NCBI GenBank assembly: GCA_963822445.1
Contig: CAWGHO010000002.1
Span: 1,664,001-1,728,000 of the forward strand
DNA from: an uncultured Acidobacteriota bacterium
GTDB taxonomy: Bacteria > Acidobacteriota > Thermoanaerobaculia > Gp7-AA8
DNA length: 64,000 nt
Reading direction: 5' to 3'
Both the position numbers and the translations under genes were made by a program. The notes below the pieces were generated by a model. That model made no database searches and was not told where the DNA came from. It worked only from the letters and a program-made list of their open reading frames with translations. Positions 1,041-28,891 of this stretch are shown here, piece after piece (the stretch's first letter is position 1; the number at the start of each line of letters is the position of its first letter).

Positions 1041-1164
1041 GCCGGAAGTATGTGACACGCGCGCGGCGCGCGGCGGTCGCAAAAAAAAACTGCCTTGTCT
1101 GTACTTTTTGGTTCCTCTCCAGGACTTACCGGGCAGAAGTCAAAAAACAAGGAGAGTTTCTCAA

Positions 1165-1680
1165 ATGAAAAAGTTCGCAGTTGTTGCAGCAGGAATGATG
1201 ATGTTCGCCGCCGTTGCATCCGCCGACACGAGCTCGGGCACGCTCGAGGTCACCGGCACGGTGGCCAGCTCGATCAACCTGACCATCGAATCCGCCGGCG
1301 GAACGACCAGCGGCACCGGTACGGCCGCGGCCACCTCGGCCCTCGGCTCGATCGCCAAGTACAGCGCGGCCCCGACGGGCTTCACCATGGCCCGCGGCGC
1401 GTCCGACTGGACGCTTTCGTCCACCGTCGGCGTGAAGGTCGACAAGGCCAACCTCACCAGCACCGACTACACGCTCACCGCGGAGCTCCAGAGCGCGCCG
1501 GCCTCCGGCATCGTCTGGAAGCTCAACGGCTCGACTCTTAGCGACAGCGCGGCCAGCACGCTCACCTCCACCGGCACCTACGGCTCGACCGGCTCCTACT
1601 CGTGGGACATCGTCGTGGCCGACAGCGCTGCCGCGGCGGCGATCGACAACATCATCAGCTTCACCGCCACCTCCAACTAG
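1165..1680 (+). CDS. Secreted Ser/Thr/Ala-rich beta protein, probable major pilin (fimbrial subunit)
   Basis: AAGGAG SD; signal peptide MKKFAVVAAG...VASA; N-terminal 'GTLEVTGTV' donor-strand-like segment; C-terminal 'IISFTATSN'; first gene of a 4-gene operon. Confidence 0.65.
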   Translation: MKKFAVVAAGMMMFAAVASADTSSGTLEVTGTVASSINLTIESAGGTTSGTGTAAATSALGSIAKYSAAPTGFTMARGASDWTLSSTVGVKVDKANLTSTDYTLTAELQSAPASGIVWKLNGSTLSDSAASTLTSTGTYGSTGSYSWDIVVADSAAAAAIDNIISFTATSN

Positions 1681-1699
1681 CCCACCCACGGATCCGCCG

Positions 1700-2182
1700 A
1701 TGAGCACGCGCACGTTTTCAGGCCTCGGGGCGGTTGCTGTTTCCCTCACACTAAGTTTTTTCCCAAATCTGCAGGCGGGGGGCCGCCAGCGCGCTGTGGC
1801 GGTCCCCCATTCTTCCTCCGATCTGTCGCTCACCTTCATCGGCTCCGGCCGCGCCGAAACGGCGATGCTCGATGCCGGATCGATCTCGTGGCGCGGAGGG
1901 CGGAACCGGTTCTCGGTCACGACGCGGACGTTCGGCGTCCGGATCGGACCGGCGTCGCGGGAAGCGCGGGCCACGGCCACGCTGCGCGCGTTTCTCGCCA
2001 CGCCGGATCCACACGCGACGATCCGGATCGACGGCGTCGTCCTCGGCACGGCGCCGCGCGTGATCCAGCGCCACGCGCCGATCGGCATCGCCGTCACGCA
2101 TCGCCTCGAAATCGAAGTTCCGGTCAGCGCGTCCGCCGGGCCGCTGGCCGCGACGATCGGCTGGGAAGTCACCAAGGAATGA
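1700..2182 (+). CDS. Secreted protein, probable minor pilin
   Basis: Signal-like N-terminus; beta-rich; ends 'TIGWEVTKE'; sits between the pilin and chaperone genes. Confidence 0.5.
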   Translation: MSTRTFSGLGAVAVSLTLSFFPNLQAGGRQRAVAVPHSSSDLSLTFIGSGRAETAMLDAGSISWRGGRNRFSVTTRTFGVRIGPASREARATATLRAFLATPDPHATIRIDGVVLGTAPRVIQRHAPIGIAVTHRLEIEVPVSASAGPLAATIGWEVTKE

Positions 2183-2187
2183 TCTTC

Positions 2188-2949
2188 ATGCGCACCTTCA
2201 TCTCTGCTCTCTTCCTGCTGTCGGCGGTCACCGCGTTCGGGGCCGAGGACGGCACGCTCTCGCTCAGCCCGGCCGTAGTCATGCTCCGCGGCGATCATGG
2301 CCAGAGCACCACGCAAACCCTGACCCTGACGAACGGCACTTCGCGGCCGTTCTCGTTCGATCTGGTCGCACAAGACGTCGTCATCACCGATGGAAAACGA
2401 CGGTTCGTCGAGGCCGGATCGATCAGCGGCAGCATCGCCGCCACTGCGGTCTTCTCGCAGACGCACGTCGATGTACCGCCGGGCGACACCGTGAACGTGA
2501 CCGTCACAGTCACAGTGCCGCCCGACACGGCGCAACGCGCCGTCATCGCGTTGTTCCGCGGCACGAACAAGGTCATGTCCGGCAACGTCCCGATGGTGGC
2601 GTCGCTCGGCACACTGCTCACGTTCCGGATCGGCGATGTGATCGAGCTGTCCGCCGAGCCGCTGATCGTCCGTCCGCAAAGCGCCGCGGCAAACCTGGCC
2701 GTCACTCAGACCTGCAGCAACAAGGGACGCGAGCCGCTGCTGGCGCGCGGGGTGATGGCCGTCGTGAACGAGAGCGGCGCACTGATCGGCAAGTCCACAC
2801 TCGATCCGCGCCGCTTGCTTCCCGGCGAGTCGACCGAGATCACCGGCGAATACGGCGGCGAGCTCGATCCCGGTAAATATCGCGTCTTCGTTACCTACGA
2901 CTATGAGGGTGGAACGGTCACCAAGCTCGCCGAGGTGGAGATCCGTTGA
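2188..2949 (+). CDS. Periplasmic pilus chaperone-like protein (two Ig-like domains, PapD/EcpB-like)
   Basis: Signal peptide; 'LSLSPAVV...QTLTLTN', 'VPPGDTVNVTV', 'NKG' and 'LLPGE' patterns. Alternative start at 2179. Confidence 0.65.
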   Translation: MRTFISALFLLSAVTAFGAEDGTLSLSPAVVMLRGDHGQSTTQTLTLTNGTSRPFSFDLVAQDVVITDGKRRFVEAGSISGSIAATAVFSQTHVDVPPGDTVNVTVTVTVPPDTAQRAVIALFRGTNKVMSGNVPMVASLGTLLTFRIGDVIELSAEPLIVRPQSAAANLAVTQTCSNKGREPLLARGVMAVVNESGALIGKSTLDPRRLLPGESTEITGEYGGELDPGKYRVFVTYDYEGGTVTKLAEVEIR

Positions 2950-5723
2950 GAGCGATCGCGCTTTCGGTTGCGCTCATGTCCGCAATCGGAGCGGCCGCCA
3001 CGGAGGCGGGCTCGCCGATGTTCGCGGCCAGGCGCGCGAACGCGGCGTACACGCTGGCCGTGCGTGAATCGCAAATCATCCCCCGGCCCGGTGCCACCGC
3101 GGCCTGGGCCGTCGACGCCACGGTCGTGGACGTCACCGTGCACAACGGAAGCGTGCGCCTCTTCGGTCGCGCCGCCGGCCGCAGCAACGTCATCGTGCTG
3201 AGCGCGGACGGCGAGGTCGTTCTGGACGTCGTCGTCAAGGCAAATCCCTCCGCCGTGGCGACGCCGAAGCGTGAGGTGCAAACCGATCGCGGCTCCGCCG
3301 AAGTGCGCTACTCCAGCGCCGCCCGCGAACTGCAGAACACCGTCACCGCCGCCCGGGAGACGAAACGCGGCAAGACCGAGCTGCACGTGCGGACCGTGCA
3401 TCACGCGGAGCAGCCGGCCGGCGATCGCGCGCGAACGAGCGTCGCCTCGGCGTCGCTCCGCTTCTTCAACAAGGACCGCGAACTGACGCTGCTCGATCGA
3501 GAGGTCGACCACTCACCGCTCACGCTCCGCCACACGCCGGTCAGAGGCATCCACTACCTCGACGAACACTGGCGGCTGCATGCGGGATACACCGCTTACA
3601 CGACCTATCAGAGTTTCCTCGTGCCGGTCGAGCGCGAGTTCGTGGCCGGCGGCGGCTACGCCTTCCGGACCGGCGCAAATTCGCGTCTCACCCCGACGTT
3701 CTTCGCGTACGAAAACGGCACGGTGCTCTCGTTGCTGTACGACTATGACGACCGCGAGGGTCTCGCGCTCCGTGCGGAGGCCGGCTACAGCGGCGGACTC
3801 GGCGGCGCCCTGCAACTGGCGTATGCCTCGAACCGCCAGCAGGCGCGCGCCGACATTCGCTATCGCGGCGAAGACTTCGCCGTCGTTTCGGCCGGCAGTC
3901 CGCGCGGCCTCCTCGCCGACGCCTCGTGGAGCCGCGAATACGGATTCGGCTCGACTGCGGCCGCGTCGTTTCAGGCGAGTGGCGCCGGCGGCTCGCGCGT
4001 CGCAGCCGGATCGGCGGACATCGAACATCGAGTCAGTGAGCGGCTAGCGCTCACGGGCGGAGCATCGTACGGTTCATTCGATGGACGGCGGAGCCTCACC
4101 GTTCCGGCGGGCGTGCGGCTCGATTTCGCGCGCGGCGGCATCGCCGCGCTGTATCGCTGGTCGCAGTCGCACGCGAACCGCGGTGGCCACGGCTTCCGGG
4201 TCTCGGGACGGGCGTCCCTGGGCCGTGCGTATCTCTCCGGATATGTCGACCGCCAGCAGAACGCGCCGACGCTGGAGGTGATTTTCGACGAACAGCCGGA
4301 GCTCGCCGTCGCCCTCGCCGAGCTCGGAATCGTGGCGACCTCCCCGGCCGACATCGCCCGTGCTCTGCGCGAGCAGGCGGCGCTGATCGAGCTCGGATAC
4401 ATCGAAGGCGTCACCGTCGACTTCGCGCCTCTGCGCACGCAGCTCGGCATCGAGCTCGGATTCCTCGGAGGCACGGCGGCGCGCCACCAGTTGCGCGCGC
4501 GCGCCATGCGCAGCGTCACCGAGAGTGTCGCGAACCGGCGTGTGTCCACCCTTGCGTCGCTGACGTACTCCCGGCGGCTCAGCGCCTCGACCGACCTGTT
4601 CGCCGGCTACACGTACTGGCGTACGGAACGGCGCGGCGAAGAGCCGCGCGAAACACCCTATGTGGAAGTGGGCCTGCGCCAGCGGTTCGACGGCTTACCC
4701 GCGATTCCCGGCCTCGGCGGATCGATCTCCGGCGTCGTCTTCGCGGACGAGAACCTCGACGGCGTCGACGACGGCACGCCCGTGACGGCCGAGGTAGAGC
4801 TCGACGGATCGCAGAAGAAGACCACGAACGAGGATGGAACGTTCACCTTCACCAACGTTCCCCGCGGCGCGCATCGCCTCTCTGCGCGCATCCCCGGCCG
4901 GCCCGACGCATACTTCACCACGCCGTCGCGCGTGGACGTGGAGACCGGCGAGCGCGTGGCCTTCGGCGTCGCCTACACGCCCGCGCGCCTTCAGGGCCGC
5001 GTGATCAGTGACTCGGGTGAAGGCCTGGCGAACGTGCGCGTGCTGCTCACGCGCGGCGTGCATCAGGTCATCGCCACCACCGAGAGCGACGGCTCTTTTG
5101 CCACCGCGGCCGCGCCCGGCGAATGGCAGGTCTCGCTGCTCTCCGACTCCGTTCCGGCCGGCTTTTCGCTCAGTGGTACCGAGGCGCGCGAGGTGATGCT
5201 CGAACGATCGCGACCGCAGGACGCCAGCTGGACGCTGCGCGCGCACCGGACTGTCACTGGTGCGGGCGCAGCACCGAACGCAGAGATCGACGTACGTCCG
5301 CTCGGCAAACGCGTTCGTGCGGACGCCGAGGGACGGTTCTCCATCCGCTCGCTTCCGGCGGGCGAGGTCACCCTCATCGCGGGCGGCGTCGAGCATCGTG
5401 TGACGTTGCCGAGCTCTCCCGCGACGAAGCACATCGATCTCGCGCCGAGAGCAGCCGTGTCGCCTGCAGTACCGATAGAGGTCAGAGGCGAGCGGCACGA
5501 CTCGACCCGCTGGGGCGTCGCGATCGGCGCCTATCGCGTGTACGCGAACGCCGTCGCCGTGGCGGCGCAGGCGCGCCAGCACGGCATCGCCGTCGAGCTC
5601 GATGACCGCGGCGGACTGGTCGTCGTCCGCTCCGGGCCGTACAGCTCGCGTGAGGCAGCGACCGAGGCCGCCGCGCGGCTGACGAAGGCCGGAATGGAGG
5701 CGATCGTACTGTCCATAAAATGA
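2946..5723 (+). CDS. Outer-membrane usher-like protein with SdrD-B/carboxypeptidase-regulatory-like repeats and a C-terminal SPOR domain
   Basis: Signal peptide; long amphipathic beta-strand region; 'SISGVVFADENLDG' SdrD-B-like motif; C-terminal 'VAIGAY..YANA...VRSGPYSSREAA' SPOR signature. Confidence 0.65.
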   Translation: MRAIALSVALMSAIGAAATEAGSPMFAARRANAAYTLAVRESQIIPRPGATAAWAVDATVVDVTVHNGSVRLFGRAAGRSNVIVLSADGEVVLDVVVKANPSAVATPKREVQTDRGSAEVRYSSAARELQNTVTAARETKRGKTELHVRTVHHAEQPAGDRARTSVASASLRFFNKDRELTLLDREVDHSPLTLRHTPVRGIHYLDEHWRLHAGYTAYTTYQSFLVPVEREFVAGGGYAFRTGANSRLTPTFFAYENGTVLSLLYDYDDREGLALRAEAGYSGGLGGALQLAYASNRQQARADIRYRGEDFAVVSAGSPRGLLADASWSREYGFGSTAAASFQASGAGGSRVAAGSADIEHRVSERLALTGGASYGSFDGRRSLTVPAGVRLDFARGGIAALYRWSQSHANRGGHGFRVSGRASLGRAYLSGYVDRQQNAPTLEVIFDEQPELAVALAELGIVATSPADIARALREQAALIELGYIEGVTVDFAPLRTQLGIELGFLGGTAARHQLRARAMRSVTESVANRRVSTLASLTYSRRLSASTDLFAGYTYWRTERRGEEPRETPYVEVGLRQRFDGLPAIPGLGGSISGVVFADENLDGVDDGTPVTAEVELDGSQKKTTNEDGTFTFTNVPRGAHRLSARIPGRPDAYFTTPSRVDVETGERVAFGVAYTPARLQGRVISDSGEGLANVRVLLTRGVHQVIATTESDGSFATAAAPGEWQVSLLSDSVPAGFSLSGTEAREVMLERSRPQDASWTLRAHRTVTGAGAAPNAEIDVRPLGKRVRADAEGRFSIRSLPAGEVTLIAGGVEHRVTLPSSPATKHIDLAPRAAVSPAVPIEVRGERHDSTRWGVAIGAYRVYANAVAVAAQARQHGIAVELDDRGGLVVVRSGPYSSREAATEAAARLTKAGMEAIVLSIK

Positions 5724-5738
5724 ACGCAGTCGCGTAAC

Positions 5739-5763
5739 GGAACGGTTGCCTCATTCGCTCGTT
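5739..5763 (+). promoter_or_regulatory. Candidate ECF-sigma promoter GGAAC-N16-CGTT
   Basis: GGAAC 5739-5743, 16-nt spacer, CGTT 5760-5763, upstream of the REC-ECF gene. Confidence 0.5.
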
Positions 5764-5832
5764 CCTTTGTTTTCATCGACTTACGTGTGGCTTGCCTCTT
5801 GATCTATCTCTGGCGAGACGATGGGAGGCAAT

Positions 5833-6669
5833 GTGTCCAGAATTCTGGTGGTCGATGACGATGTGACGCTCGTCGAGGGCATTCGCGCGATGCTCGACGT
5901 GCACGAGATCGAGTCCGAGGGAGCCTGGGACTGCGACTCGGCGGAGCAGCTGGTCGCGGGACAGTTCTTCCCGGTGATCCTCGCCGATCTGCGGATGCGC
6001 AGCGAGGAAGACGGGTTGCGCCTGATCGAGGCCGTCCGCCGCATCAGCCCACGCTCGCGTGTGGCCACGATGACGGGATATGCCGACGAGGCCACCGAGG
6101 CGCGGCTTCGCGAATGCGGCTCGGAGCTGGTGCTGCGCAAGCCGCTGGGCGAAGAGGAGCTCATCGCCGCGCTGCGGCACATGCTGGAGGTCGTCGACGC
6201 GGCAGCGGACGCGCACGCTGAGGACGATGAAGGGCTGTACGCCGCGACGATCGACACGTTGCAGGCCATTTCTCGCGGCCGCTACGGATTTCCGGCGGAA
6301 GACGTCGAGGAGCTGGTCCAGGAGACGTGGCTCCTCTTCCTCGAAAAGCGGCACCTCGTGCGTACACCGAAAGCGTGGCTATCCGGCACGATCGCAAATC
6401 TTTGCCGCCAGGAGATCGAGCGCCGCACCCGCAACCGCGCGCGCACCGGCGAGATGTCGGAGCCCGCGGTCGTTCCGGCGGACGACGCGGTGCTGGCGGT
6501 GCGCCAGGCCCTGGCGCGCCTCGACGATCGCTCGCGCACACTCTGCAGCCTGATCGGCCTCGAACAGCGATCCTACGAGGAAGTGAGCATGGCGGAGAAC
6601 CTCCCGCTCGGCAGCATCGGTCCGTTGTACCTGCGCGCGAAGAAGAAGCTGCGGCTGGAGTTGCAATGA
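5833..6669 (+). CDS. Receiver domain fused to an ECF sigma factor (REC-sigma2-sigma4)
   Basis: REC residues: VVDDD, ILADL, MTG, RKP. Sigma2: DVEELVQETW...AWLSGTIANLCR. Sigma4: ALARLDDRSR...SYEEVS...PLGSIGP...RAKKKLR. GGAGG SD before GTG 5833 (alternative ATG 5821). Confidence 0.85.
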   Translation: MSRILVVDDDVTLVEGIRAMLDVHEIESEGAWDCDSAEQLVAGQFFPVILADLRMRSEEDGLRLIEAVRRISPRSRVATMTGYADEATEARLRECGSELVLRKPLGEEELIAALRHMLEVVDAAADAHAEDDEGLYAATIDTLQAISRGRYGFPAEDVEELVQETWLLFLEKRHLVRTPKAWLSGTIANLCRQEIERRTRNRARTGEMSEPAVVPADDAVLAVRQALARLDDRSRTLCSLIGLEQRSYEEVSMAENLPLGSIGPLYLRAKKKLRLELQ

Positions 6670-6676
6670 GACAGGT

Positions 6677-7114
6677 CTAAGGCGCGGTCGGGTGATGCGG
6701 AGACTCGTTGAGGACCAGCCAGTACGACTGCAGCTGACGCGCGGTCTCGACAAAGCGCGCGAAATCGACGGGCTTGCGAACGTAACCGTTCGCGCCGCGG
6801 TCGTAGCACTCGGCGATGTCCGATGCCCGGTCGCTCGACGTCAGCATGACGACCGGGATGCGGCGGGTGCGCTCATCGGTGCGGAGACGCCGCAGAACGT
6901 CCAGGCCGCTGAGACCGGGCATGTTCAGATCGAGCAGAACGACGCGCGGCATGGCTGACGGATCGCTCTTCGCCCTCTCACTCGCCTCGAAGAGAAACGC
7001 CAGGGCCTGGGCTCCGTCGCGCGCCACTTCTAGCGGCACGCCGGGGCTCGCGCGCTGAAAGGCGCGCCGGGCCAGGTCGATCTCGTCTTCGTTGTCTTCG
7101 ACCAGGAGAATCAT
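6677..7114 (-). CDS. Single-domain response regulator, Rcp1-like
   Basis: ILLVEDN, LLDLNMP, MLTSS, GANGYVRKPVDF, YW motifs; ATGA overlap with the upstream kinase. Confidence 0.9.
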   Translation of the reverse strand: MILLVEDNEDEIDLARRAFQRASPGVPLEVARDGAQALAFLFEASERAKSDPSAMPRVVLLDLNMPGLSGLDVLRRLRTDERTRRIPVVMLTSSDRASDIAECYDRGANGYVRKPVDFARFVETARQLQSYWLVLNESPHHPTAP

Positions 7115-9090
7115 CGATGTCGAGTGTCTGCGTGAGAATTCAAAGTCCAATGAAACCGCGCTCCGCGGCCCGGCTGGCCATCGGCCCAGATGTGGCCGCC
7201 GTGACGTTCGACGATGCGCTGCACTGTGGCCAGGCCGATTCCCGTTCCGGGGTAGTCGGCGTCGGAATGGAGCCGCTGAAACGGCGTGAAGAGTTTTTCG
7301 GCATAAGCCATGTCGAAGCCGGCTCCGTTGTCGCAGACGAGATAGACCGGCTCTCGCCTGTCCTCATGCACTCCGAACTCGATGACCGCCTCGGCCTCGC
7401 GGGCCGTGAACTTCCAGGCATTGCCGAGGAGATTTTCGAGCAGCACGCGCATCATGCGCGGGTCGGCACAAGCGTTGACGTCCGGTTGGATGATGACGCG
7501 CGCGTTCCGGTGCGGCGAGGCTTTGATCAGGTTGTCCGTGATGTCGCGGACCATTGCGGAAAGGTCGACGGTCCTGGGGTGAATGGCCGCGCGGCCAAGA
7601 CGGGAGAGCTTGAGCAGGTCATCGATCAGTTCGGCCATACGACGTGACGCGGCCTGCACGCGCTGCATGTAGCCGTGGGCGCGCTCGTCGAACAGCGTGC
7701 CGTAGTCTTCGGCGAGGGCGGTGGTGAATCCGTCGATCGTGCGCAGTGGCGCGCGCAGATCGTGAGACACCGTGTAGCTGAACGACTCCAGTTCGCGATT
7801 CTTCTGTTGCAGCTCTTCCACGAGTCGCGCGCGCGTTTCGGCGAGCTCGCGGGCCGCTGTTGCCTCCGATGCCTCGAGCTCCGCGCGCAGAAGCTGATTG
7901 CGAATCTGGCGATTTTCCTCCTCGAACTGCCGGCGCCTGAGCTGGGCGCGAACGCGAGCGCGCAGAACCTCGAGATGGCTGGACTTGGAAAGATAATCGT
8001 CCGCCCCGGCCCCGAGCCCCTCGATCATGGCTTCGCGGTCCTCCATCGCCGTCAGCATGATCAGCGGAATGTCGCGGAGTCCGGGGGCCTGCTTGATGCG
8101 GCGGCAGGTCTCCTGCCCGCTGATGCCGGGCATGAGCAGGTCGAGAAGGATGCAGTCCACGTGCTGTACGGCGAGCATCTCCAGAGCCTCCTCACCGGAA
8201 TGCGCCAGGATCACGTCGTAGCCTTCGCCGGACAATGCCTCCGCGAGCAGATGAAGAAACGTGGCGCTGTCATCGACGGCCAGAATCTTCTTGGGGCCGA
8301 CCAGACTCGACGTCGTTCGCTCTTCGGTCGCACGCGACGAGCGAAGCACGGCTGCGACGCGAGCCATGACGACGCTCGGATCCTCGTCTTTCCGCACGAA
8401 GGCGTCAGCGCCGGCGTCCAGGGCGCGCAATTCGGCGGCCGCGTCGTTCGAGCCGGTCAACATGACGCACGGCGTCCGCCGCAGCGCTGCGTCGAGGCGG
8501 ACACGCCGGATCACCGTCGCTCCGTCCATGCCGGGGAGTACGTCGTCGACGATGATGGCGCTGGGCCGCGCGTCTCCCGCGACGCGCAGGCCTTCTTCAC
8601 CGCTGAGGGCCGTGAGCACGTGATAGTCGAGCTGCTCCAGTTCCGCTTTCAGCTCCTGCTGGAACGTGACGCTGTCATCGATGATCAGCACCGGCATGCG
8701 GTCCGCCGTTGCCTGTGTGCGATGTGCGTTGGCCAGCTCCCGCGCTCGTGCCACGAGGTAATGAACGTCATACGGTTTGCCGACGTATTCGTCGGCGCCG
8801 GTCGTCAGCCCGCGAATGCGATCCTGCACCTCGGCTTCGCTGGAGAGAAGAATCACCGGCAGGTCCGCGATGCGGGGATCGCTCCGAAACTCGCGAAGCA
8901 GATCGATGCCGTCGCCGTCCGGTAAGCGGACATCCAGTACCGCCACGGCCACGCCGTCGGTGCGGACCACCTGTCGCGCTTCGGCGGCGGTGCCACATGG
9001 ATGCACGCGCAGGCCGGCATGCTCGAAGGCCTCGGCGAGGTGCATGCGCACCGTCAGACTGTCATCCACGATGAGAACGAGCGGCGTCAT
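7111..9090 (-). CDS. Hybrid kinase: three REC domains plus HisKA/HATPase (Cph1-like core)
   Basis: Three xxDDS REC repeats; FSYTVSHDLRAPL H-box; NAWKF, DNGAGF and GTGIGL boxes. Confidence 0.92.
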   Translation of the reverse strand: MTPLVLIVDDSLTVRMHLAEAFEHAGLRVHPCGTAAEARQVVRTDGVAVAVLDVRLPDGDGIDLLREFRSDPRIADLPVILLSSEAEVQDRIRGLTTGADEYVGKPYDVHYLVARARELANAHRTQATADRMPVLIIDDSVTFQQELKAELEQLDYHVLTALSGEEGLRVAGDARPSAIIVDDVLPGMDGATVIRRVRLDAALRRTPCVMLTGSNDAAAELRALDAGADAFVRKDEDPSVVMARVAAVLRSSRATEERTTSSLVGPKKILAVDDSATFLHLLAEALSGEGYDVILAHSGEEALEMLAVQHVDCILLDLLMPGISGQETCRRIKQAPGLRDIPLIMLTAMEDREAMIEGLGAGADDYLSKSSHLEVLRARVRAQLRRRQFEEENRQIRNQLLRAELEASEATAARELAETRARLVEELQQKNRELESFSYTVSHDLRAPLRTIDGFTTALAEDYGTLFDERAHGYMQRVQAASRRMAELIDDLLKLSRLGRAAIHPRTVDLSAMVRDITDNLIKASPHRNARVIIQPDVNACADPRMMRVLLENLLGNAWKFTAREAEAVIEFGVHEDRREPVYLVCDNGAGFDMAYAEKLFTPFQRLHSDADYPGTGIGLATVQRIVERHGGHIWADGQPGRGARFHWTLNSHADTRHR

Positions 9091-10172
9091 TCGACGCCCC
9101 TGGCCGCGGCGAGATCCGCCAGTGACGGCCCGATCGCGCCGAGCGACAGAATGCGTTGCGCCGCCTTCAGGCGCACGGCCTCGCCAGGCATGCCGAATAC
9201 GACCGAGCTTTGTTCATCCTGCGCGATCGTCAGTCCGCCCGCCTCGTGTATGCGCAGAAGGCCGGCCGCGCCGTCGCGTCCCATCCCGGTCAACAGACAG
9301 GCCGCGGTCCGCTTGGCGTGCTCGCGCGCGAGCGATTCGAAGAGAACGTCCACCGACGGACGGGAGAAGTTTCGCTCCGGTCCGGTCGACAGCCGCAGCA
9401 CGCCGCGCTCGAGGGTCATGTGATAGTCGGGCGGAGCCATCGTGACGCGCCCACGCACGCTGGACAGGGCTTCACCCCCTTTGGCGTAGGTCACGCGAAG
9501 ATCCGACTGTCCATCCAGCCATTCCGCGAAGGAGACGGCGAACGTCGCAGCGATGTGCAGCACCAGCAGAATCGGCAGCGGAAAATCGGGCGGAAGCGAC
9601 CGAAGGATGTCGACGATGGCCGCCGGACCGCCGGTCGATGCGCCGATCGCCACGAGGTCGATGCCGTTCGTGTGGTGCAGGCCTCCGGCCTGCGTTTCAG
9701 CTTTGGTTACGGAGGCAGGCCGGAGGCCTACACCCCACCGGGCGAGTTTCGCGCGGGGGTGGGTGATGACTTTGATCTTCGAGATCAGGCGGACCGTCGA
9801 CACCAGGCGGCTGGCCCATTCGTCGGTGTTCTGATCGGCTTTCGGTTTGTCGAGGACGTCGACGGCGCCGGCGGCCAGTGCCTCGTACGTCTTGAACAGC
9901 TCGCCCCTGTTCGTCGACGACGAGACGACGAGGATCGGGGTCGGGAAGTGAGCCATGATGTATTCGGTCGCCGCCAGGCCGCTCATGACCGGAAGCATCA
10001 TGTCCAGGGTGATGACGTCGGGCCGCAGCTCTCCGCAGAGATGGATCGCGCTGCTGCCGTCGTGCGCTTCGCCGACGACTTCGATGTCCGGCGCGGCGCG
10101 AAGCACATCGATCAGGTACTGCCGTACCGTCAGCGAGTCCTCGACCACGACCACCCGGATCTTTCCGCTCAT
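9087..10172 (-). CDS. cheB: Chemosensory methylesterase (REC + CheB)
   Basis: N-terminal REC; GASTGG, RPSVDVLF and TGMGRDG motifs. Confidence 0.95.
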   Translation of the reverse strand: MSGKIRVVVVEDSLTVRQYLIDVLRAAPDIEVVGEAHDGSSAIHLCGELRPDVITLDMMLPVMSGLAATEYIMAHFPTPILVVSSSTNRGELFKTYEALAAGAVDVLDKPKADQNTDEWASRLVSTVRLISKIKVITHPRAKLARWGVGLRPASVTKAETQAGGLHHTNGIDLVAIGASTGGPAAIVDILRSLPPDFPLPILLVLHIAATFAVSFAEWLDGQSDLRVTYAKGGEALSSVRGRVTMAPPDYHMTLERGVLRLSTGPERNFSRPSVDVLFESLAREHAKRTAACLLTGMGRDGAAGLLRIHEAGGLTIAQDEQSSVVFGMPGEAVRLKAAQRILSLGAIGPSLADLAAARGVE

Positions 10173-12229
10173 GCGACCAGTTTCCGAATCGTCTCCAGCA
10201 ACTCGTTCTGATCGAAGTCGCTCTTGACGATGTAGGCGCTCGCGCCGGCATCGGCGCCGCGGCGGCGGTCTTCCGGTGCGTTCCGCGACGTGACCAGGAT
10301 TGCCGGCACCCGCCGCAGGTTGGCGTCGGCGCGCGTGCGCTCGACGAACGTGAAGCCGTCCATTCCGGGCATTTCGACATCGACGAGGAACAGCGAGTAC
10401 TCGTGACGCCGGGCCATGTCCAGGCCCTCTTCCGCCGACGCGGCGAGATGAACTTCGTAGCCGGCCGACTCCAGGATGCTCTGTTCGAGCATTCTCGTGG
10501 TGAGCGAGTCGTCGATGACCAGGATCGGTTGCGCCACGTGCGTCGCCTCGCGAGCCGTTGCCGTTTCGCCGCCCATGGCTGCGCGCACGAGCGCATCGGG
10601 ATCGAGGACGAGCTGCGGCGTTCCCTCCGTATCGAAGGCGGCGCCGATCACGACCGGCGCGGCCGGCGCGGTGGGCGGCAGCGGGCGCATGACCAGGTCT
10701 TCGATGCCGAGGATCCGCTCGACCGCCACGGCTGCCACGCCGCTGACCGCCGACAAAGTCACGGCTGAGACGCCGCCGGCCGCGCTCCGACCGTGCGACC
10801 GCGGATCGCGCAGCCCGAGAGGAGCGGACAGCGAAATGAACGGCAGCAGCGCACCGCCGTACAGGAGTGCCGGACCTTTCGAAGTCTGCGCGAGCTCATT
10901 CTTCTCCGTGCGCCGCGCCTGAAGAATCGACGCGACCGGGATTGCCGCCGTGACGCCGGACGTCTGCACCAGGAGCGCCTGCAGGGACGCCAGCGACACC
11001 GGAACGATCAGATCGACCGTGGTGCCCTGGCCCGGTTGCGTGTGAACCGCGATCTCGCCACCAGCGAGCGCCACGGCCTCGCGCACGACATCGAGTCCGA
11101 TTCCGCGTCCGGAGGCCTGCGTGACCGAGGAGGACGTCGTGACGCCGGTGGTGAAGAGCAACTTCAGGATGGCCTCGCCGCTGAGTGGCGCTGTACCCGG
11201 CGGCAACAGGCCGCGCTGTACGGCGACGTGCCGAACGGCGGCCACGTCGACGCCGCGGCCGTCGTCGCGGCAGCGGAAGATCACGCGCTTGTCCTGGTGC
11301 AGGACCTCGATGGTGACCGTTCCATGCGGCGATTTCCCGGCGCCCCGCCGTTCGACGGGCGTCTCGATTCCGTGCGCGACCGCATTGCGCACCAACTGCA
11401 CCATCGCCGGTTGCAAGGTCCCGAGAACATCTGCATCGACGCGGATGTCGCCGCCGCTCGCGTCGAACTCGACCTTCCTCCCCTGACTGCGCGCGACGTC
11501 GCGGGCGGTGCGCTCCAGCACCGAAAACAGCGTTCGAGCCGGCACGAGGCGCAATCGCTCGGCCACCGCCTTCGCCTGTCGCAGCTCGCGCTCGGTCGTT
11601 TCGAAGGCGCTGGCGAACCGGCGCTCGATTTCCGCCAGCGATGTGCGCAGTTCCTCGGCCATGCGCATGACTTTCGCGGTCGGCTCACCGCTGCGCGACG
11701 TCCGTGCCCGCGGCGCCGTGAACTGGCCGGCCAGCAGCTCCGCGATCTTGCGGGCATGCTCCAGATCGACGAGCGAGCGATGAATGCCGCCGAGATGCAC
11801 CCCGATCTCGGTGAGACTGTCGATGACGAGGTCGACCTCGCCGACCTCCGTGCGCACGGTGCGCAACCCCTCGCCCGGGCTCTCCCGGCGCGACGCGGTG
11901 ACCGGAGGAGCTTCAGGAGGCGGGAGAGCGGCTACTCGCGTGCCGATCCGGGCCAGAAGATCGAGGAGCTGTTGCAGTTCCTCGCCAGTGGCGGCCCGGT
12001 CGGTGCCGCGCAATGGCTCGAGCGCGTCCTCCATCGCGTGCGCGAGGTCGGCGATCTCTCCCTGCTTCACCACGCGCGCCGCCCCCTTGAGCGTATGCGC
12101 GAGGCGAAGCAGCGCGGAGACGTGCTCGCGAGCCGGCGCGCCTTTCTCCAGCGCCGTCACTTCCATTCCGATCCTTTCGACGATCTCTCGTGCTTCGGGC
12201 CGGAAGTAGCGATACGGGTCGTCTGCCAT
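10169..12229 (-). CDS. cheA: Hybrid CheA kinase with C-terminal REC (WspE/FrzE-like)
   Basis: Hpt AHTLKG; RNAVAHGIE, DDGRG, SGRGIGLDVV; CheW domain; C-terminal REC. Confidence 0.95.
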   Translation of the reverse strand: MADDPYRYFRPEAREIVERIGMEVTALEKGAPAREHVSALLRLAHTLKGAARVVKQGEIADLAHAMEDALEPLRGTDRAATGEELQQLLDLLARIGTRVAALPPPEAPPVTASRRESPGEGLRTVRTEVGEVDLVIDSLTEIGVHLGGIHRSLVDLEHARKIAELLAGQFTAPRARTSRSGEPTAKVMRMAEELRTSLAEIERRFASAFETTERELRQAKAVAERLRLVPARTLFSVLERTARDVARSQGRKVEFDASGGDIRVDADVLGTLQPAMVQLVRNAVAHGIETPVERRGAGKSPHGTVTIEVLHQDKRVIFRCRDDGRGVDVAAVRHVAVQRGLLPPGTAPLSGEAILKLLFTTGVTTSSSVTQASGRGIGLDVVREAVALAGGEIAVHTQPGQGTTVDLIVPVSLASLQALLVQTSGVTAAIPVASILQARRTEKNELAQTSKGPALLYGGALLPFISLSAPLGLRDPRSHGRSAAGGVSAVTLSAVSGVAAVAVERILGIEDLVMRPLPPTAPAAPVVIGAAFDTEGTPQLVLDPDALVRAAMGGETATAREATHVAQPILVIDDSLTTRMLEQSILESAGYEVHLAASAEEGLDMARRHEYSLFLVDVEMPGMDGFTFVERTRADANLRRVPAILVTSRNAPEDRRRGADAGASAYIVKSDFDQNELLETIRKLVA

Positions 12230-12232
12230 GGT

Positions 12233-13702
12233 TCATGCCGCTTTCTGCGGCTGGACCAGACGCAGCAGCCCGTGCGACAGCTGCGCGAGTTGCGCCGCGG
12301 TCTGAAGCGTCTGAATCGACGTCGTCTCCGTCTCGCGTGTGACCTGGGTCATGTTGCCGATGGCCAGGTTCACCTGCTCGACGGCCGTGGTCTGCTGCTT
12401 GGTGCTCAGCTCGATCTCGCGAGCCGCCTCGGTGGTCGTCGTCACCAGGTCGGCGATCTCTTTGAACGTGCTCGCGACGTCGGCGAACTGGCGCGTTCCG
12501 GCATCGACCGCCTTCGAGCCACTTTCGGTCGCCATCACGGTGGTGTTGACGGCGCCGCGCACGTCGTCGATCAGGGCGCGGATCTCCTTGGTCGACCCGC
12601 CGACGCGGTCGGCCAGCTTGCGAATCTCGTCGGCGACCACGCCGAAGCGCTTGCCGGTTTCGCCGGCGCCGGCGGCCTCGATGGTCGCATTGATCGCGAG
12701 GATGTTCGTCTGCTCGGCCAGCTCCGAAACGATGTCGAGCACGGCTCCGATCTGTTGCGACTTCCGGCCGAGGTCGAGCATGTGCTGCACCACGACGTCG
12801 ATCTGCCGGCGAATGCCTTCCAGCGACTCGTAAGTACGGGCCACCTTGTCCTCTCCGACGCGCGCGGTGCCGGCCGTTCGTTCGGCGACGTCTGCGACGC
12901 GTTGGGCGCTTTCGGCGATCTGGCGGGAAGTGGCGAGCAGCTCGCTGATGGTCGTCGAGATCTCGTTCATGGCCGTGGCGTGCTCCCGCGCGCCGGTGGC
13001 CTGCTCGTTCGCAGCGGTCTGCAGCTGCGCGGAGGAGCTCTGCACTTCGCTGACGGTCGATCCGATGTGTGCAGCGATGTTCCGGGTCAGCAGGTAGCCG
13101 ATCAGAGCGGCCATGGCGATGGCGGTCGCGGAGAAGATCACCACGATCCATGTCGCCGACCGCGCGCGCTCGCTCGAGTGGCGCCGGGCCTCCTCCAGGA
13201 CGCGCTCCTCATGATCGAGCATCGCCCCGATCTCCGCATCGAGGGCATTGCGCAGGGGAACCACTGTATTTTCGAATGCCCGCGACGCTTCCACGGCCGA
13301 AATGCCGCCGCGCCGCTGTTCGATGACGCGAGACAGCGATTCGCGGTGAGCCCGCTCGGCACGCACGACGGACTCGAGCAACTGCCGCTCGCGGTCGGTC
13401 TCGAGCGAGCCGCGGAGTTGCGCGGCGATGGCGTCGAATTCGCCCCTCGCCGAGCCGAGACTCGTCAGAAACGCGTCGTTTCCCGTGAGCAGGTAGCCGC
13501 GGCCAGCGGCCGACTTGCTCTCGGTGTTCGTCTTCAGCCGCTGGGTGTCCAGCAGGAGGTGCGAATTGACTCGGATCACTTCGTCCTTCGCCGCCACGAC
13601 GTGGCGCAGAGCGAGAACGGAGACGACTCCGATGATCAGGGCGACGGCGACGACCGCCGCCAGTCCTGCTGCCAGTCTGCGACCGAATGTCCAGTTCTTC
13701 AT
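12233..13702 (-). CDS. Methyl-accepting chemotaxis protein (2 TM, helical extracytoplasmic sensor)
   Basis: [37 protein letters not shown] signature; start at MKNWTFGRR. Confidence 0.95.
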
Positions 13703-13703
13703 C

Positions 13704-14201
13704 TCATGTCTCCTTTGGGGCGGGCGTACTCGTTTGCGGAAGCGCCGCGAGCAGGGCGGCAATGCTCAGGATCGAACGGACCACCGCGCCGTCGCGCACG
13801 GCTCCGTCGCCGAAGTTCCCGGTCATGCGGATCTGCGCCTCGAAGTGCTCGAACGCGAGCCCGATCGGCAGCTCGGACGTACCGGCCAGCGCAATCCAGC
13901 GCGGCTCGGATGCCGGCGGGTAGCCGAGCAGGACGGCGACGTCGAAGACGGGAATGATCAGGCTGCGGTAGCCGGCGATGCCGAGAAACGAGGACACGGA
14001 GGACGGCAGCGGCACGATTCGGCGGCCGGCGAGCAGCCCGGTCACCTCTGACAGGCGAAGCGCATGGGGGTGCCCGGCGATCGTCACGGCGATCAGCCTC
14101 TCGCCGTCCGCTCGTTCGCATTCCGGTGGAACGGCGAACGAACGATCGAAGTCGCGACGCAACAGCGCGGCGCGGTCTTCGAGGTGAATGCCGTCATTCA
14201 T
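13704..14201 (-). CDS. cheW: CheW-like adaptor
   Basis: FDRSFA N-terminus; IVPLP...[16 protein letters not shown]. Confidence 0.85.
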
Positions 14202-15736
14202 GCCGGACCTCCGCAGAGCGTGAGCTCGGCGCGGCAGAGATCGATCAGCGCCTCGCGGCTGAATCCGCCGCCGAACAGCAGCAGCCGGGAGACGTCTTCA
14301 CGCTCGAGCAGCACCAGCGCCTGGGCGAGATCGCGGCGTGCCGCCGCCCGATCTCCGCTCTTGCGCGCCAGGAGTCCGAGGTGCAGGCGGGGCGCGGCGA
14401 AGCTCGGATCGAGATACGCCGCGGTCTGGTCATGATCGATTGCGGCGGCCGGGTCGCGGGCTCCTTCGCGGCACAGCGCCATCAGATAGTGCGCGCCGGC
14501 GCTGAGCTCGTCGATGGCCAGGATGGTCCGGCAGACCTCCTCCGCCGCCGCGAGATCGCCTCGATGCGCGAGCAGCACCGCACGCAAGGCCAGCACGTCG
14601 GTGTTGCGGTTCGAATCGGGCGGAAGCGCGTCGACGAGGGCGAGCGCGTCGCCGTATCGCTCGTCGCGAAGCAGTTCGAACGCCGGAGCGAGATCCCAGT
14701 ACGCCGCGACGTCCCGTGCAGGTGCGGCGGAAGGTCCCGTTTGCGGTTTTTCCGTCAACGAGCGAATGCGCTCGGCCGAACGCGTGATCGTCTCGACCCA
14801 CGATTCCGCCGACTCGTACATCTTCGACAGGGGTGTCGCGTCTGCTTCGGCAATCTGGCGTATCTCGGGACCAGGCGGCAGCGCCTGCTCTGCTTCGGAC
14901 CGCTTCTGGTAATAAAACGTGTCGTGGGTATGCCGGAGATGAAACTCGCGGGACAGACCGCGCAGCGTCTCCGCGTGACCGAGAAAGAAAAAACCGCCGG
15001 GCAGGAGCGACCGGCAGATCCGGTCGACGACGCGCTGTGCGGCGTGCGGCGTGAAATACATCAGCATGTTTCTGCAGAAGACGATGTCGAACGCCGTGCC
15101 GTCCCAGAACCGCGCGTCATCGTCCGCGACGTTCCGCTCTTCGAACGACACCATCCTGCGGATGCGCTCATCGATCACGAGCTCGCGCCCGCGGGCGGCG
15201 AACCATCGGTCGCGCACAGCGTCGGGCGTTCCGCGCAACGACCACGGCGAATACCGGCCGGCCCGCGCTTTCTCGATCGCGTCCGGGTTTACATCGACGG
15301 CGACGATCCGCACGTCCCAGTCCGTCATCAGCGGAAGAAACTCACGAATGACGATCGCGATCGTGTAGGGCTCTTCGCCGGACGAGCAGCCGATCGAAGC
15401 GACGGTGAGCGTTGGCGCGGGCCGGCGAATACGCATCCTCGCCGGCAGCGCAATCTCGCGTAACGCGCGGAATTGCTCTTCATTACGGAAGAAGTAGCTC
15501 TCCCCGACGGTGAGCTCGCGGGCGAGCTCGCGCCATTCTCCGCCGGCATCGTCACGCACATGCCCGGCCGTTTCCAATGAGGTGACGTAATGGTCCGGCG
15601 TCGTCCGTTTTGCTTCGCTTCGCCGCTGCAGCACGTCGATGACGAAATTCAGTTTGAAAGCATCGAACTGAAGGCCGAAGCGATCGGCGATGACGCGTTG
15701 AAAACGCTGGATGTTCTGCAGTGCGGGAGGCATCAC
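14198..15736 (-). CDS. cheR: CheR methyltransferase with C-terminal TPRs (WspC/FrzF-like)
   Basis: TVGESYFFR, GCSSGEEPY, CRNMLMYF and LGHAE motifs; TPR helices. Confidence 0.95.
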   Translation of the reverse strand: MMPPALQNIQRFQRVIADRFGLQFDAFKLNFVIDVLQRRSEAKRTTPDHYVTSLETAGHVRDDAGGEWRELARELTVGESYFFRNEEQFRALREIALPARMRIRRPAPTLTVASIGCSSGEEPYTIAIVIREFLPLMTDWDVRIVAVDVNPDAIEKARAGRYSPWSLRGTPDAVRDRWFAARGRELVIDERIRRMVSFEERNVADDDARFWDGTAFDIVFCRNMLMYFTPHAAQRVVDRICRSLLPGGFFFLGHAETLRGLSREFHLRHTHDTFYYQKRSEAEQALPPGPEIRQIAEADATPLSKMYESAESWVETITRSAERIRSLTEKPQTGPSAAPARDVAAYWDLAPAFELLRDERYGDALALVDALPPDSNRNTDVLALRAVLLAHRGDLAAAEEVCRTILAIDELSAGAHYLMALCREGARDPAAAIDHDQTAAYLDPSFAAPRLHLGLLARKSGDRAAARRDLAQALVLLEREDVSRLLLFGGGFSREALIDLCRAELTLCGGPA

Positions 15737-16185
15737 GCATCAGCCTCCTGGATCGCGCTCCACAGCTCCTCCGGAATGAGCCGGGTGGATTCGATCACGG
15801 CCAGCAGCTCGCGATCGAGCGTACCGACGGCCGAGATTGCACTGTTGAGCCCTTCGCTCGTAATGACCGGCACCGCCGGCAGCGCTTCGGCTGGAATCGC
15901 ACGCATGGACAGCACCTCGTCGACCGCAAATGCGACGTGGTGGTTTCCGGCACGCAAGAGCACGAATCGCGACGCTGTGCCGATTCGGCCGCCACTCAAT
16001 AGGCGGCCGCCGTCGACAATGGGTGTCGGCAGGCCGCGAATGCATGTAATGCCCAATACGAACTCCGGCGCGGGCGGCAACGGCTCGTAGGGGAGCGGCC
16101 GCATTGTCTCGACGATCCGGTCGGCCGGTAGAGCACAGAAGTGCGTCCCGATGCGGCAGATGAGGTAGAGCGCTGCGCCACTCAA
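15733..16185 (-). CDS. cheW: CheW adaptor
   Basis: ETMRPLP...FVLGITCIRGLPTPIVD, AFAVDEV. Confidence 0.9.
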   Translation of the reverse strand: MSGAALYLICRIGTHFCALPADRIVETMRPLPYEPLPPAPEFVLGITCIRGLPTPIVDGGRLLSGGRIGTASRFVLLRAGNHHVAFAVDEVLSMRAIPAEALPAVPVITSEGLNSAISAVGTLDRELLAVIESTRLIPEELWSAIQEADA

Positions 16186-16420: not shown

Positions 16421-17800
16421 ATGGACGTGGCGCGGCTGATTGACTCCGCCAGGCAGGCCGTCGTCGCGACCGATGCAAACGGAACGCTGACGTACTGGAA
16501 CCGTTTTGCAGAAATGCTTTACGGCTGGAGCGCCGACGAGGTCATGGGACGCCATCTCGTCGAAATGACGTGCGTCGAGGCGGAAAGCCAGCACGCCCGG
16601 CAGATTCTCAGGCGCGTACACGACGGCGCGCCCTGGATCGGTCAACTGCGGGCTCGGCAGCGCAGCGGGCAGGAAATTGGCACGTTCGCGTTGCGCGCCC
16701 CGTTGTTCGAAGAAGGGCGGGTGATCGGGATCTTCGGTGTATCGGTCGAGGCGAGCGCGGTGGCAGACCTGTCGTCTGGAGTTGACCAGCAGCATCGCGA
16801 GGTGCTCTATACGGCACCCGATCCGTTGTTCCGGATCAGTGCAGACGGCCGCTTCCTCGCATACGCCGGACCGGTCGGGTCGCCTTTGCTGCTCCCGCCG
16901 GAGGAATTCACCGGCAGGCTTATGGAGGAAGTGATGCCGGCCGACGTCGCGGCGCGCTGTCGCGAGGCGATCGCGCACGCCCTCGGCGAGCAGACCGTCG
17001 TTACCGTCGAGTACGAGCTGGAAATTGCCGGCGGCATCCACGCCTTCGAGGCGCGCATTGCGCCGGCCGGAACGTCGGAAGTGATCGCCATCGTTCGCGA
17101 CATTACCGAGTCCCGCCGGTTTCAGAACGAGCTTTACGCGCATGTGACGGATCGCACCAGGGAGATTGCCGCGCTTTCGGAGCGGCTTCTGGCGATTCAG
17201 GATGAAGAGCGCCGCAGAATCGGCCGCGAGTTGCATGACGACATCGGACAGATGGTCACGGCGCTGTCGCTGCTGATCGCGGCTGCACGGAAAAGCCCTG
17301 CTGCCGCGGTCGAACAGCTCGTCGAGGCGAATGGACTGGTGTTGCGTCTGCAGGAGCAGGTTCGCGATCTCTCGTTCTCTCTGGCGCGCGGGTTCGGCGG
17401 CAGGCTGTCGGACGCATTACGCGCCCATGCAGCGGCGTTCTCCCACCACGCCGGTCTTCCGATCGACGTGACCGGGGATGCGGTGGAGGGACTCTCCGCC
17501 GACGTGGAGGCGACCGCGTTCAGGATCGTGCAGGAGGCGCTGACGAACGTCATCCGTCATGCCCGCGCCTCCGCTGCCACGGTGGCGGTGAGCACCACCC
17601 CGGAAGTGCTGAGAATCGCCATTTCGGACGACGGCTGCGGGTTCGACCCCACCCGACCGGTCTACGGTCTCGGGCTGGCCGGCATGCGCGAGCGGGCACG
17701 CCTCGCCGGCGGGCGGCTGATCGTCGAGTCCGTTCCCGGCGGCGGGACGACGATCGTGGCCACATTGCCGCGGACGACGCGCGACAAGGCCGCCGACTGA
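16421..17800 (+). CDS. PAS-PAS sensor histidine kinase (HisKA_3/NarX type)
   Basis: YWNRFAE PAS; ERRRIGRELHDDIGQ; QEALTNVIRHA; DDGCGF; GLAGMRER. Confidence 0.92.
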   Translation: MDVARLIDSARQAVVATDANGTLTYWNRFAEMLYGWSADEVMGRHLVEMTCVEAESQHARQILRRVHDGAPWIGQLRARQRSGQEIGTFALRAPLFEEGRVIGIFGVSVEASAVADLSSGVDQQHREVLYTAPDPLFRISADGRFLAYAGPVGSPLLLPPEEFTGRLMEEVMPADVAARCREAIAHALGEQTVVTVEYELEIAGGIHAFEARIAPAGTSEVIAIVRDITESRRFQNELYAHVTDRTREIAALSERLLAIQDEERRRIGRELHDDIGQMVTALSLLIAAARKSPAAAVEQLVEANGLVLRLQEQVRDLSFSLARGFGGRLSDALRAHAAAFSHHAGLPIDVTGDAVEGLSADVEATAFRIVQEALTNVIRHARASAATVAVSTTPEVLRIAISDDGCGFDPTRPVYGLGLAGMRERARLAGGRLIVESVPGGGTTIVATLPRTTRDKAAD

Positions 17801-17817
17801 TCCGGCGTCCGTTCGAC

Positions 17818-19331: not shown

Positions 19332-19338
19332 GCGGGTC

Positions 19339-19461
19339 TCAGAAGGCAAGCTGCAGGGCGAGCGTGACCGCAAAGGACGGCGCGCAGACTGCGAGGAACA
19401 CGCGCCAGCTTTGCCGGCCGCCACGGATGTCAGAGAGAGTGCTCGATAGAAAGTCAGTCAT
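19339..19461 (-). CDS. Small membrane peptide (40 aa)
   Basis: AAGGAG SD 6 nt before ATG; MTDFLSSTLSDIRGGRQSWRVFLAVCAPSFAVTLALQLAF has one C-terminal TM. Confidence 0.5.
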   Translation of the reverse strand: MTDFLSSTLSDIRGGRQSWRVFLAVCAPSFAVTLALQLAF

Positions 19462-20004: not shown

Positions 20005-20107
20005 CTGCCGGCGGGCTGCTGCCGGACGTGGCGCGGCTCAGCTCGACGCCATTACAATCCCACCCCATGCGGCGTAACACCGCGCAACGTCTGGAGAGAG
20101 TGGCCTC

Positions 20108-28875: not shown

Positions 28876-28891
28876 GCGGTACCATTCGCCG

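Follow-up and report, generated by a model that had tools for sequence, protein, structure and literature searches.

A receiver domain fused to an ECF-like sigma factor in Acidobacteriota, a candidate for a sigma factor switched by aspartate phosphorylation

The REC-sigma protein and its family

A 64-kb stretch of DNA from an uncultured Acidobacteriota bacterium (contig CAWGHO010000002.1; the whole stretch is referred to here as the window) was analysed for a gene that joins a receiver (REC) domain to a sigma factor of the extracytoplasmic function (ECF) type in one polypeptide. The gene, defined by the list of open reading frames (ORFs) and by Pfam and NCBIfam matches, lies on the plus strand at 5821..6669 and encodes a protein of 282 aa, hereafter the REC-sigma protein, when read from the ATG at 5821. 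The GTG at 5833, giving 278 aa, is more likely to be the true start, because the orthologues begin with MSKIL, MTRIL or VSRIL and because a ribosome-binding site, GGGAGG, sits at 5823-5828 (plus strand). The best explanation of this protein, to which we assign a rough probability of 0.55, is that it is a sigma factor switched in cis by phosphorylation of an aspartate (Asp).

Pfam and AlphaFold2 agreed on the domain order, with the receiver at the N-terminus, sigma2 in the middle and sigma4 at the end, as described in the original prediction. All three parts are encoded on the plus strand. The receiver spans residues 8-119 (5842..6177) and matched Pfam Response_reg at 57.6 bits against a cut-off of 30.2. 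Sigma2 covers about residues 138-208 (6232..6444; Pfam 155-204) and contains the motifs EELVQETW (163-170) and WLSGTIANLCRQ (186-197). Sigma4 covers about residues 220-281 (6478..6663; Pfam 226-277), and its recognition helix opens with G264-S265-I-G267-P268. Sigma70_r3 had no Pfam match in the REC-sigma protein or in 30 family members, which carry sigma2 and sigma4 only. In the AlphaFold2 predictions, sigma2 is formed by three helices and is followed by a linker of ~11 residues (low predicted local distance difference test score, pLDDT, at 212-217) and a four-helix sigma4. The full-length model, computed from a 141-row alignment, had a mean pLDDT of 88.4. It contained one continuous predicted helix, unbroken from residue 111 to residue 154 (6151..6282, plus strand), that runs from alpha5 of the receiver into the first helix of sigma2.

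The residues expected of an intact receiver (two acidic residues, the phospho-acceptor Asp, a Thr and a Lys-Pro pair) were all found, as D12-D13(-D14), D56 (codon 5986-5988), T85 and K107-P108. Response_reg matched every one of the 30 family members, and D12, D13, D56 and K107 were invariant in 30/30 of them, in an alignment reaching down to 25% identity. In the larger alignment of 141 sequences, D56 and K107 were again invariant, and D12, D13, T85 and P108 were conserved in at least 90%. Judged by these residues, the receiver looks competent for phosphorylation and is, on this pattern of conservation, intact and under selection. Its closest solved relatives were the receivers of the NtrC family, both in Protein Data Bank (PDB) sequence searches and in fold searches. 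The fold search with the full-length model returned receiver domains only, and the full-length PDB profile search was likewise dominated by receivers.

Of 4787 candidates from a word-indexed protein search, 590 were relatives at E<=1e-3. The best 120 of these 590, the window's own protein aside, were 260-291 aa long and 58-79% identical, and those with names were called 'response regulator' or 'sigma-70 family' in metagenome genomes of Thermoanaerobaculia/Acidobacteriota. When 1.84 billion cluster representatives were searched exhaustively, 26 proteins reached E<=1e-30. Family-specific hidden Markov models (HMMs), one for each half, were used to look for the fusion order, the architecture search for REC, Sigma70_r2 and Sigma70_r4 that had been proposed from the sequence at the outset; receiver followed by sigma was found in 28 of 150 listed representatives and in 120/120 close matches. 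Some members had already been labelled by database pipelines as a sigma24/CheY-like combination. By length, full-length members split into a class of ~276-294 aa and a rarer class of ~312-329 aa, the latter having a longer linker; P0159, a representative of the roughly 320-aa subtype, found 5 proteins when used in a homology search.

Conservation extended through the sigma half. Q167, R239, Y252 and G264-S265-x-G267-P268 were invariant in the alignment of 30 sequences. Among the 141 sequences, Q167, G264, G267 and P268 were invariant, S265 was conserved in at least 90%, and the same held for L165-x-Q-E-x-W170, W186-L187-x-G-T-x-x-N-L-C-R196 and Y270-x-R-A-K274. The GS.GP motif, an unusual one that reads GS(I/V)GP, was present in 27/28 and 119/120 of the fusion members. 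From this pattern, the recognition helix of sigma4 is evidently under strong constraint, and its near invariance fits a conserved target. Taken at the level of sequence, these receiver-ECF sigma fusions of Acidobacteriota make up a small and conserved family, and the fusion is more than a chance joining of domains.

Affinities of the sigma half

PhyR, the anti-anti-sigma response regulator in the general stress response of Alphaproteobacteria, consists of the same two building blocks. The REC-sigma protein could be a PhyR-like mimic with the domains in reversed order, in which case phosphorylation would expose the sigma-like half, which would sequester an anti-sigma factor encoded elsewhere and free a separate ECF sigma factor, with no binding of RNA polymerase by the protein at any stage. 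We consider this unlikely, since the family-wide profile searches, the PDB sequence search, the fold search and the gene neighbourhood all speak against it. With Pfam, Sigma70_r2 matched 26/30 members at E<=0.01 (best 9.5e-8) and Sigma70_r4_2 matched 29/30 (best 3.8e-9), and both matched 30/30 at E<=10; at that same threshold PhyR_sigma2 matched 0/30 and PhyR_sigma-like 1/30 (E 0.093). Residues 137-282 compared with PDB sequences gave 10 chains at E<=10, of which nine were sigma factors (SigJ as the best at 6.6e-4, Mycobacterium tuberculosis SigE, SigW, AlgU and others) and none was PhyR. The acidic motif of region 2.2, EELVQE(T/A)W, is retained in the fusion family.

The predicted fold pointed in the same direction. 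A sigma-only AlphaFold2 model (19-row alignment, pLDDT 89.5) was used for Foldseek, and its best matches were the ECF sigma factors L, H and E in M. tuberculosis RNA polymerase initiation complexes, at 6.8e-5 to 8e-5 (6dv9_F at 6.8e-5, then 5zx2_F and 9m9e_F). These were followed by EcfG-type RpoE/NepR, BldN, SigW and Escherichia coli sigmaE. Sixteen chains were found at E<=0.001, all of them ECF sigma factors among the matches listed, and the PhyR sigma-like domains ranked only 38-48 (E 0.04-0.11), behind more than 25 genuine ECF chains. The best matches span sigma2 and sigma4 together over 144-171 aligned columns; the low values of their template modelling scores (TM-scores), 0.35-0.46, come from a difference in how sigma2 and sigma4 are placed relative to each other. 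In sequence as in predicted fold, the likeness of the sigma half is to genuine ECF sigma factors and not to a PhyR mimic.

The neighbourhood of the gene was compared between the window and eight orthologous loci (L001-L008; nine loci in all). As had been noted from the sequence alone, no anti-sigma gene is adjacent; the neighbours are a gene for a 925-aa SPOR protein upstream and a convergent gene for a single receiver downstream. No second sigma-like frame was found within the 64-kb window, and no small partner gene is conserved beside the REC-sigma gene in the eight loci.

Several results weigh against a working, Asp-switched sigma factor, and some of them favour the mimic. The scores of the window protein fell below the curated cut-offs, with 23.5 bits against 24.0 for Pfam Sigma70_r2, 16.1 against 25.7 for Pfam Sigma70_r4_2 and 34.4 against 42.9 for NCBIfam TIGR02937 (sigma70-ECF). 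PhyR-type clusters were the nearest in a language-model feature search (score 0.93); this is a lead only, and it is contradicted by the Pfam, PDB and fold tests. The recognition helix reads GSIGPLYLRAK, compared with GTVRSRIHRGR in M. tuberculosis SigE and GSVKQKVHRAY in stand-alone ECFs from Bryobacter, and it is without the usual basic or polar residues. The R-S-R of M. tuberculosis SigE is missing from the aligned positions, which hold Gly-Pro-Leu instead. We take these positions to be the ones through which sigmaE contacts the -35 element, and R-S-R presumably belongs to ECFs that read -35 elements of the GGAAC type. With the DNA-contact positions replaced, the -35 specificity would therefore differ from that of GGAAC-type ECFs, or DNA reading would be weakened; reading of DNA could be altered or lost. 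The full-length model had a predicted TM-score (pTM) of 0.48, therefore the mutual domain placement in it is unreliable and contacts between receiver and sigma half are not readable from it.

The nearest stand-alone relatives were ECF sigma factors of Bryobacter (L009-L019), ~173 aa long and with 31-35% identity across the sigma half. EELVQETW of region 2.2 is invariant between them and the fusion family, as are several positions of regions 2.4 and 4. At one of these loci (L009, 5926-7019) the gene for the 173-aa Bryobacter ECF overlaps the start of a gene for a 191-aa multi-pass membrane protein, which by its arrangement is the canonical sigma/anti-sigma layout.

The protein could also be a conventional DNA-binding response regulator, in which sigma4 would serve as the helix-turn-helix and sigma2 as a linker or dimerisation module, so that the protein would activate or repress what the housekeeping holoenzyme transcribes. 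Ordinary regulators likewise have their receiver at the N-terminus, and regulators of the NarL type also score on Sigma70_r4_2, as does a LuxR-type regulator encoded in the window itself (20108-20764) at 28.6 bits; a block at 5766-5806 upstream of the gene, described below, could be its operator. We regard this possibility as improbable, though a little less so than the mimic. The whole three-helix sigma2 is conserved, with EELVQE(T/A)W, a motif of the core-binding type, and WL.GT..NL, which would be unexpected for a linker, and the best fold matches extend over sigma2 as well as sigma4. The sequence and predicted-fold evidence computed here is all consistent with the reading as an Asp-switched sigma factor.

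Upstream sequences and neighbouring genes

The original prediction had placed an ECF-type promoter, GGAAC-N16-CGTT, ahead of the gene and had suggested autoregulation from it. The string itself is present, in exact form, at 5739-5763, which is 58-82 nt before ATG 5821, and the window contained 4 matches against 0.75 expected, a count reached in 1/100 shuffles. Its standing as a conserved promoter did not hold. It is part of a palindrome, GGAACG-N15-CGTTCC (5739..5765, both strands), that begins 16 nt past the upstream stop codon (5721-5723) and is followed directly by a conserved T-rich tract, TTTGTTTTCA, a position like that of a terminator stem. The palindrome matches on both strands (5739-5763 on plus, 5741-5765 on minus) and therefore accounts for two of the four matches in the window; the remaining two (16481-16505 and 40523-40547) fall within coding frames. 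GGAAC-N14-18-CGT was found in none of the eight orthologous loci over the 300 nt upstream of the gene, and the palindrome is absent from all eight, whereas another block is kept in 7/9 loci. The sigma4 helix also lacks the R-S-R that we presume to mark GGAAC readers. We therefore consider it very improbable that 5739-5763 is an ECF-type promoter by which the REC-sigma gene regulates itself. As a regulon motif, GGAAC-N16-CGTT was likewise rejected, on its palindromic nature and its absence from the other loci.

The palindrome folds as a hairpin ahead of UUUGUUUUCA, at -13.7 kcal/mol. A hairpin directly before the T-tract was clear in the window and L003 only, and it was weaker or displaced in L001, L002, L004, L005 and L006. 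In a single-sequence fold, the segment 5715-5790 was not above shuffles (z = -0.27). A simple scan of 5400-7300 called neither a terminator nor a sigma-70 promoter, and an Rfam search of 5600-5950 gave only a chance miRNA match far below the gathering score. A terminator in the region of 5739-5765 is plausible from the sequence, and the most economical reading is that the palindrome is a weak terminator-like or incidental stem ending the upstream gene, not an ECF promoter.

The block that is kept between loci lies at 5766..5806 on the plus strand and consists of TTTGTTTTCA (5766-5775), GACTTA (5778-5783), TGGC (5788-5791) and TTGATCTA (5799-5806). The arrangement TTTGTTTTCA-N3-(G)ACTTA-N3/4-TGGC-N7-TTGATCTA was found in the window and in L001-L006 (7/9), and was not found in L007 or L008. 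GACTTA-N4-TGGC-N7-TTGATCTA, at 5778-5806, occurs exactly once in the window. Motif scans over 28 loci gave a single TGGC-N7-TTGATMT in each of L001-L004 and in L006, and none elsewhere; the block of L005 has AGGC at the TGGC position. TTGATCTA ends 27 nt ahead of GTG 5833. Read as a -10 or as a -12 element, it would therefore place the start of transcription near 5813 either way, and not near 5770. The spacing of TGGC-N7-TTGA is invariant and has the -24/-12 geometry of sigma-54 elements, with GA and not the usual GC at -12 in all 7 loci, and neither rpoN nor a sigma-54 activator was found in the 64-kb window. By its geometry, the block at 5778-5806 could be a sigma-54-type element; it could equally be GACTTA-N16/17-GATCTA for a factor of the sigma-70 family.

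Upstream of the REC-sigma gene and on the same strand lies a cluster of three genes (1165..5723, plus strand). The first, identified by tblastn and synteny, encodes a secreted pilin-like protein of 171 aa (1165-1680, plus strand). The second (about 2188-2949, plus strand; tblastn and Pfam) encodes a protein of about 252 aa that is Ig/fn3-like. The third (2946-5723, plus strand; Pfam) encodes the 925-aa pil_N/CarboxypepD_reg/SPOR protein, whose N-terminal region is of the pilus-formation type and which has CarboxypepD_reg repeats and, at the C-terminus, a SPOR domain. Against the proteins of L003 and L004, the cluster showed 59-76% identity by tblastn. The REC-sigma gene is the last of the same-strand cluster, and this order is kept in the window and in L002-L007; L008 is partial and cut inside the large gene, and L001 has a different upstream side. 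The 171-aa protein matched no Pfam or NCBIfam family. Its nearest named cluster in feature space was 'spore coat protein U', a weak lead (0.91, with SCPU in 15% of members), and it falls in Acidobacteriota-only clusters. The layout of the three genes resembles a subunit/chaperone/outer-membrane-assembly arrangement; no usher or chaperone family was matched in them.

Ahead of the first gene of this cluster is the sequence TGTAYT-N17-GACTYA (1100..1128, plus strand), itself preceded by a run of A (about 1081-1089). It matched once in the window against 0.10 expected. Exact matches were found once each in L002 (31-59), L003 (1314-1342), L004 (1326-1354) and L006 (1259-1287), and L007 has it at 1061-1089 with one mismatch. 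The motif thus stands ahead of the cluster in 6/6 loci with a visible upstream region, the window included. The element is promoter-like, its hexamers are non-canonical, and it is a good promoter candidate for an alternative sigma factor. This factor is possibly the REC-sigma protein itself, as we infer from the shared neighbourhood.

Downstream, a convergent signalling cluster occupies 6677..16185 on the minus strand, as annotated with Pfam. In order of coordinates it encodes a single REC (6677-7150), a 3xREC-HisKA-HATPase hybrid kinase (7111-9090), CheB (9087-10172), CheA-REC (10169-12229), an MCP with 4HB/CHASE3 (12233-13762), CheW (13704-14201), a 512-aa CheR (14198-15736) and a second CheW (15733-16185), all on the minus strand. 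This complete che-like cluster looks like a chemosensory pathway with a non-motility output, and it is a candidate source of phosphodonors for the receiver. In the other loci it is not kept beside the REC-sigma gene. A histidine kinase gene lies directly beside the REC-sigma gene on the same strand in 3/8 orthologous loci (L001, L004 and L007). It follows 3' of the gene after 85 nt in L004 and after 19 nt in L007, and the gene of L001 is preceded by a receiver and a large hybrid kinase. These neighbouring kinases are 25-40% identical to one another and not orthologous, therefore no cognate kinase can be assigned, which is a further point to be held against an Asp-switched sigma factor. A conserved cognate kinase identified by synteny was rejected for the same reason.

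The single receiver of the window (6677-7150) and that of L001 (1028-1459) share 51% identity over 138 aa. Single receivers adjoining the gene in two genomes could be a conserved phosphorelay partner.

Other features of the window lie further downstream. A dense signalling run at 16421-24611 encodes a PAS-HisKA_3 kinase, a REC-EAL protein, the LuxR-type response regulator and two PAS hybrid/orphan kinases. A 696-aa ORF at 31216-33306 (plus strand) has GreA/GreB domains at residues 548-682 only, and its first ~540 residues had no Pfam match at E<=1e-5. Either a Gre factor carries a long extension at its N-terminus here, or the start codon is called too early. The preceding stretch of about 2.3 kb, at 28875-31216, contained no ORF chosen by gene picking based on codon bias.

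Proposed mode of action and relation to known systems

For a sigma factor switched by Asp phosphorylation, the following sequence of events may be proposed. A histidine kinase or a phosphorelay would phosphorylate D56 of the N-terminal receiver. The resulting change at the alpha4-beta5-alpha5 face would travel along the long alpha5 helix and reach the first helix of sigma2, and the sigma half would toggle between states incompetent and competent for core RNA polymerase. Binding of RNA polymerase and the direction of the switch are both predicted here, and the kinase and the regulon are putative. The fused receiver would take the place of the usual anti-sigma factor. The promoter that is read would not be GGAAC-N16-CGTT, with TGTAYT-N17-GACTYA and the block at 5778-5806 ahead of the protein's own gene as candidates. 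The likely regulon would include the upstream cluster of pilin-like, Ig-like and outer-membrane/SPOR proteins. In its most specific form, the proposal is of a response-regulator sigma factor in which phospho-Asp, acting through a single helix, gates engagement of RNA polymerase, in which GS(I/V)GP reads an unusual promoter, with TGTAYT-N17-GACTYA as the candidate, and which drives an Acidobacteriota-specific cluster for a surface fibre or secretion. We put this fuller version forward tentatively and would give it somewhat less than an even chance.

The likeness to PhyR is that a receiver and an ECF-like sigma2/sigma4 share one polypeptide, in which Asp phosphorylation is expected to alter the accessibility of the sigma part. 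The differences are several. In PhyR the sigma-like domain is N-terminal and the receiver C-terminal, whereas REC comes first here; the PhyR-specific Pfam models fail on the family, the sigma half of which is nearer to true ECFs; no NepR or EcfG partner lies nearby in the 64-kb window or in the eight orthologous loci; and the REC-sigma family is found in Acidobacteriota, whereas PhyR belongs to Alphaproteobacteria. Regulators of the NarL/FixJ type share an N-terminal receiver followed by a helix-turn-helix related to sigma4, but have no counterpart to the complete, conserved sigma2 found here.

Among ECF sigma factors, ECF41/SigJ, ECF42 and ECF238/CorE are described as carrying C-terminal regulatory extensions that bind ligands or are cleaved (accessible portions of PMC8999054 and of the Casas-Pastor reclassification). 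The REC-sigma protein resembles them in having a sigma2 and sigma4 core with a regulatory domain in cis and in lacking an anti-sigma gene, and SigJ is also the best PDB sequence match of its sigma half. It differs in carrying its extension at the N-terminus, as a phospho-acceptor receiver. The N-terminal extensions named for ECF121, ECF36s4 and ECF12s1 are not receiver domains, according to the portions of the reclassification that are accessible (Casas-Pastor). In ECF43, as described in the accessible part of PMC8999054, the sigma factor EcfP is activated by PknT through Ser/Thr phosphorylation, with a Thr in region 2.2 and a sigma factor without the acidic DAED motif. Phosphorylation would serve as the switch instead of an anti-sigma factor in both cases; unlike EcfP, the REC-sigma protein keeps the acidic motif (D/E-x-E-E-L-V-Q-E), and the phosphate would sit on an Asp of a separate, fused domain. 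In Porphyromonas gingivalis, the response regulator PorX binds and stabilises the ECF sigma factor SigP in trans (PMC4800418 and Casas-Pastor, in their accessible parts). A protein with a receiver domain acts directly on an ECF sigma factor without an anti-sigma factor in that system as well, but PorX and SigP are two separate proteins where the REC-sigma protein is a covalent fusion.

An ECF with a fused receiver was not found in the main text of the ECF reclassification or its NAR supplement, nor in the reviews PMC8999054 and PMC8103513, each as far as its text was accessible. By title or abstract, no paper on the receiver-sigma fusion architecture was found in the openly accessible literature, with surveys of response regulators outside this scope. 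The arrangement is apparently rare and undescribed. The general ECF HMM threshold given in the accessible part of the reclassification is 60.8 bits (Casas-Pastor), and the divergent REC-sigma protein might lie below it. That the family is small, divergent and maybe under the thresholds of ECF collections could explain why it has gone undescribed. It may be seen as an ECF with a fused regulatory domain or, equally, as a response regulator with an unusual output.

If the REC-sigma protein is set by its own receiver, the modes of regulation that the ECF reviews list, in so far as their text is accessible, would grow by one. No path from a kinase to the choice of promoter could be shorter than one through a sigma factor that a receiver controls in cis, and such a sigma factor could serve synthetic circuits as a compact, orthogonal and phosphorylation-gated part. 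In bacterial signalling, ECF sigma factors and two-component systems count as separate pillars, and the known links between them are indirect, through two-component transcription of a sigma gene, titration of an anti-sigma factor by PhyR or stabilisation of SigP by PorX. In the Acidobacteriota, a poorly studied phylum, the conserved but unannotated pilin-like and outer-membrane cluster upstream of the gene offers a concrete candidate regulon.

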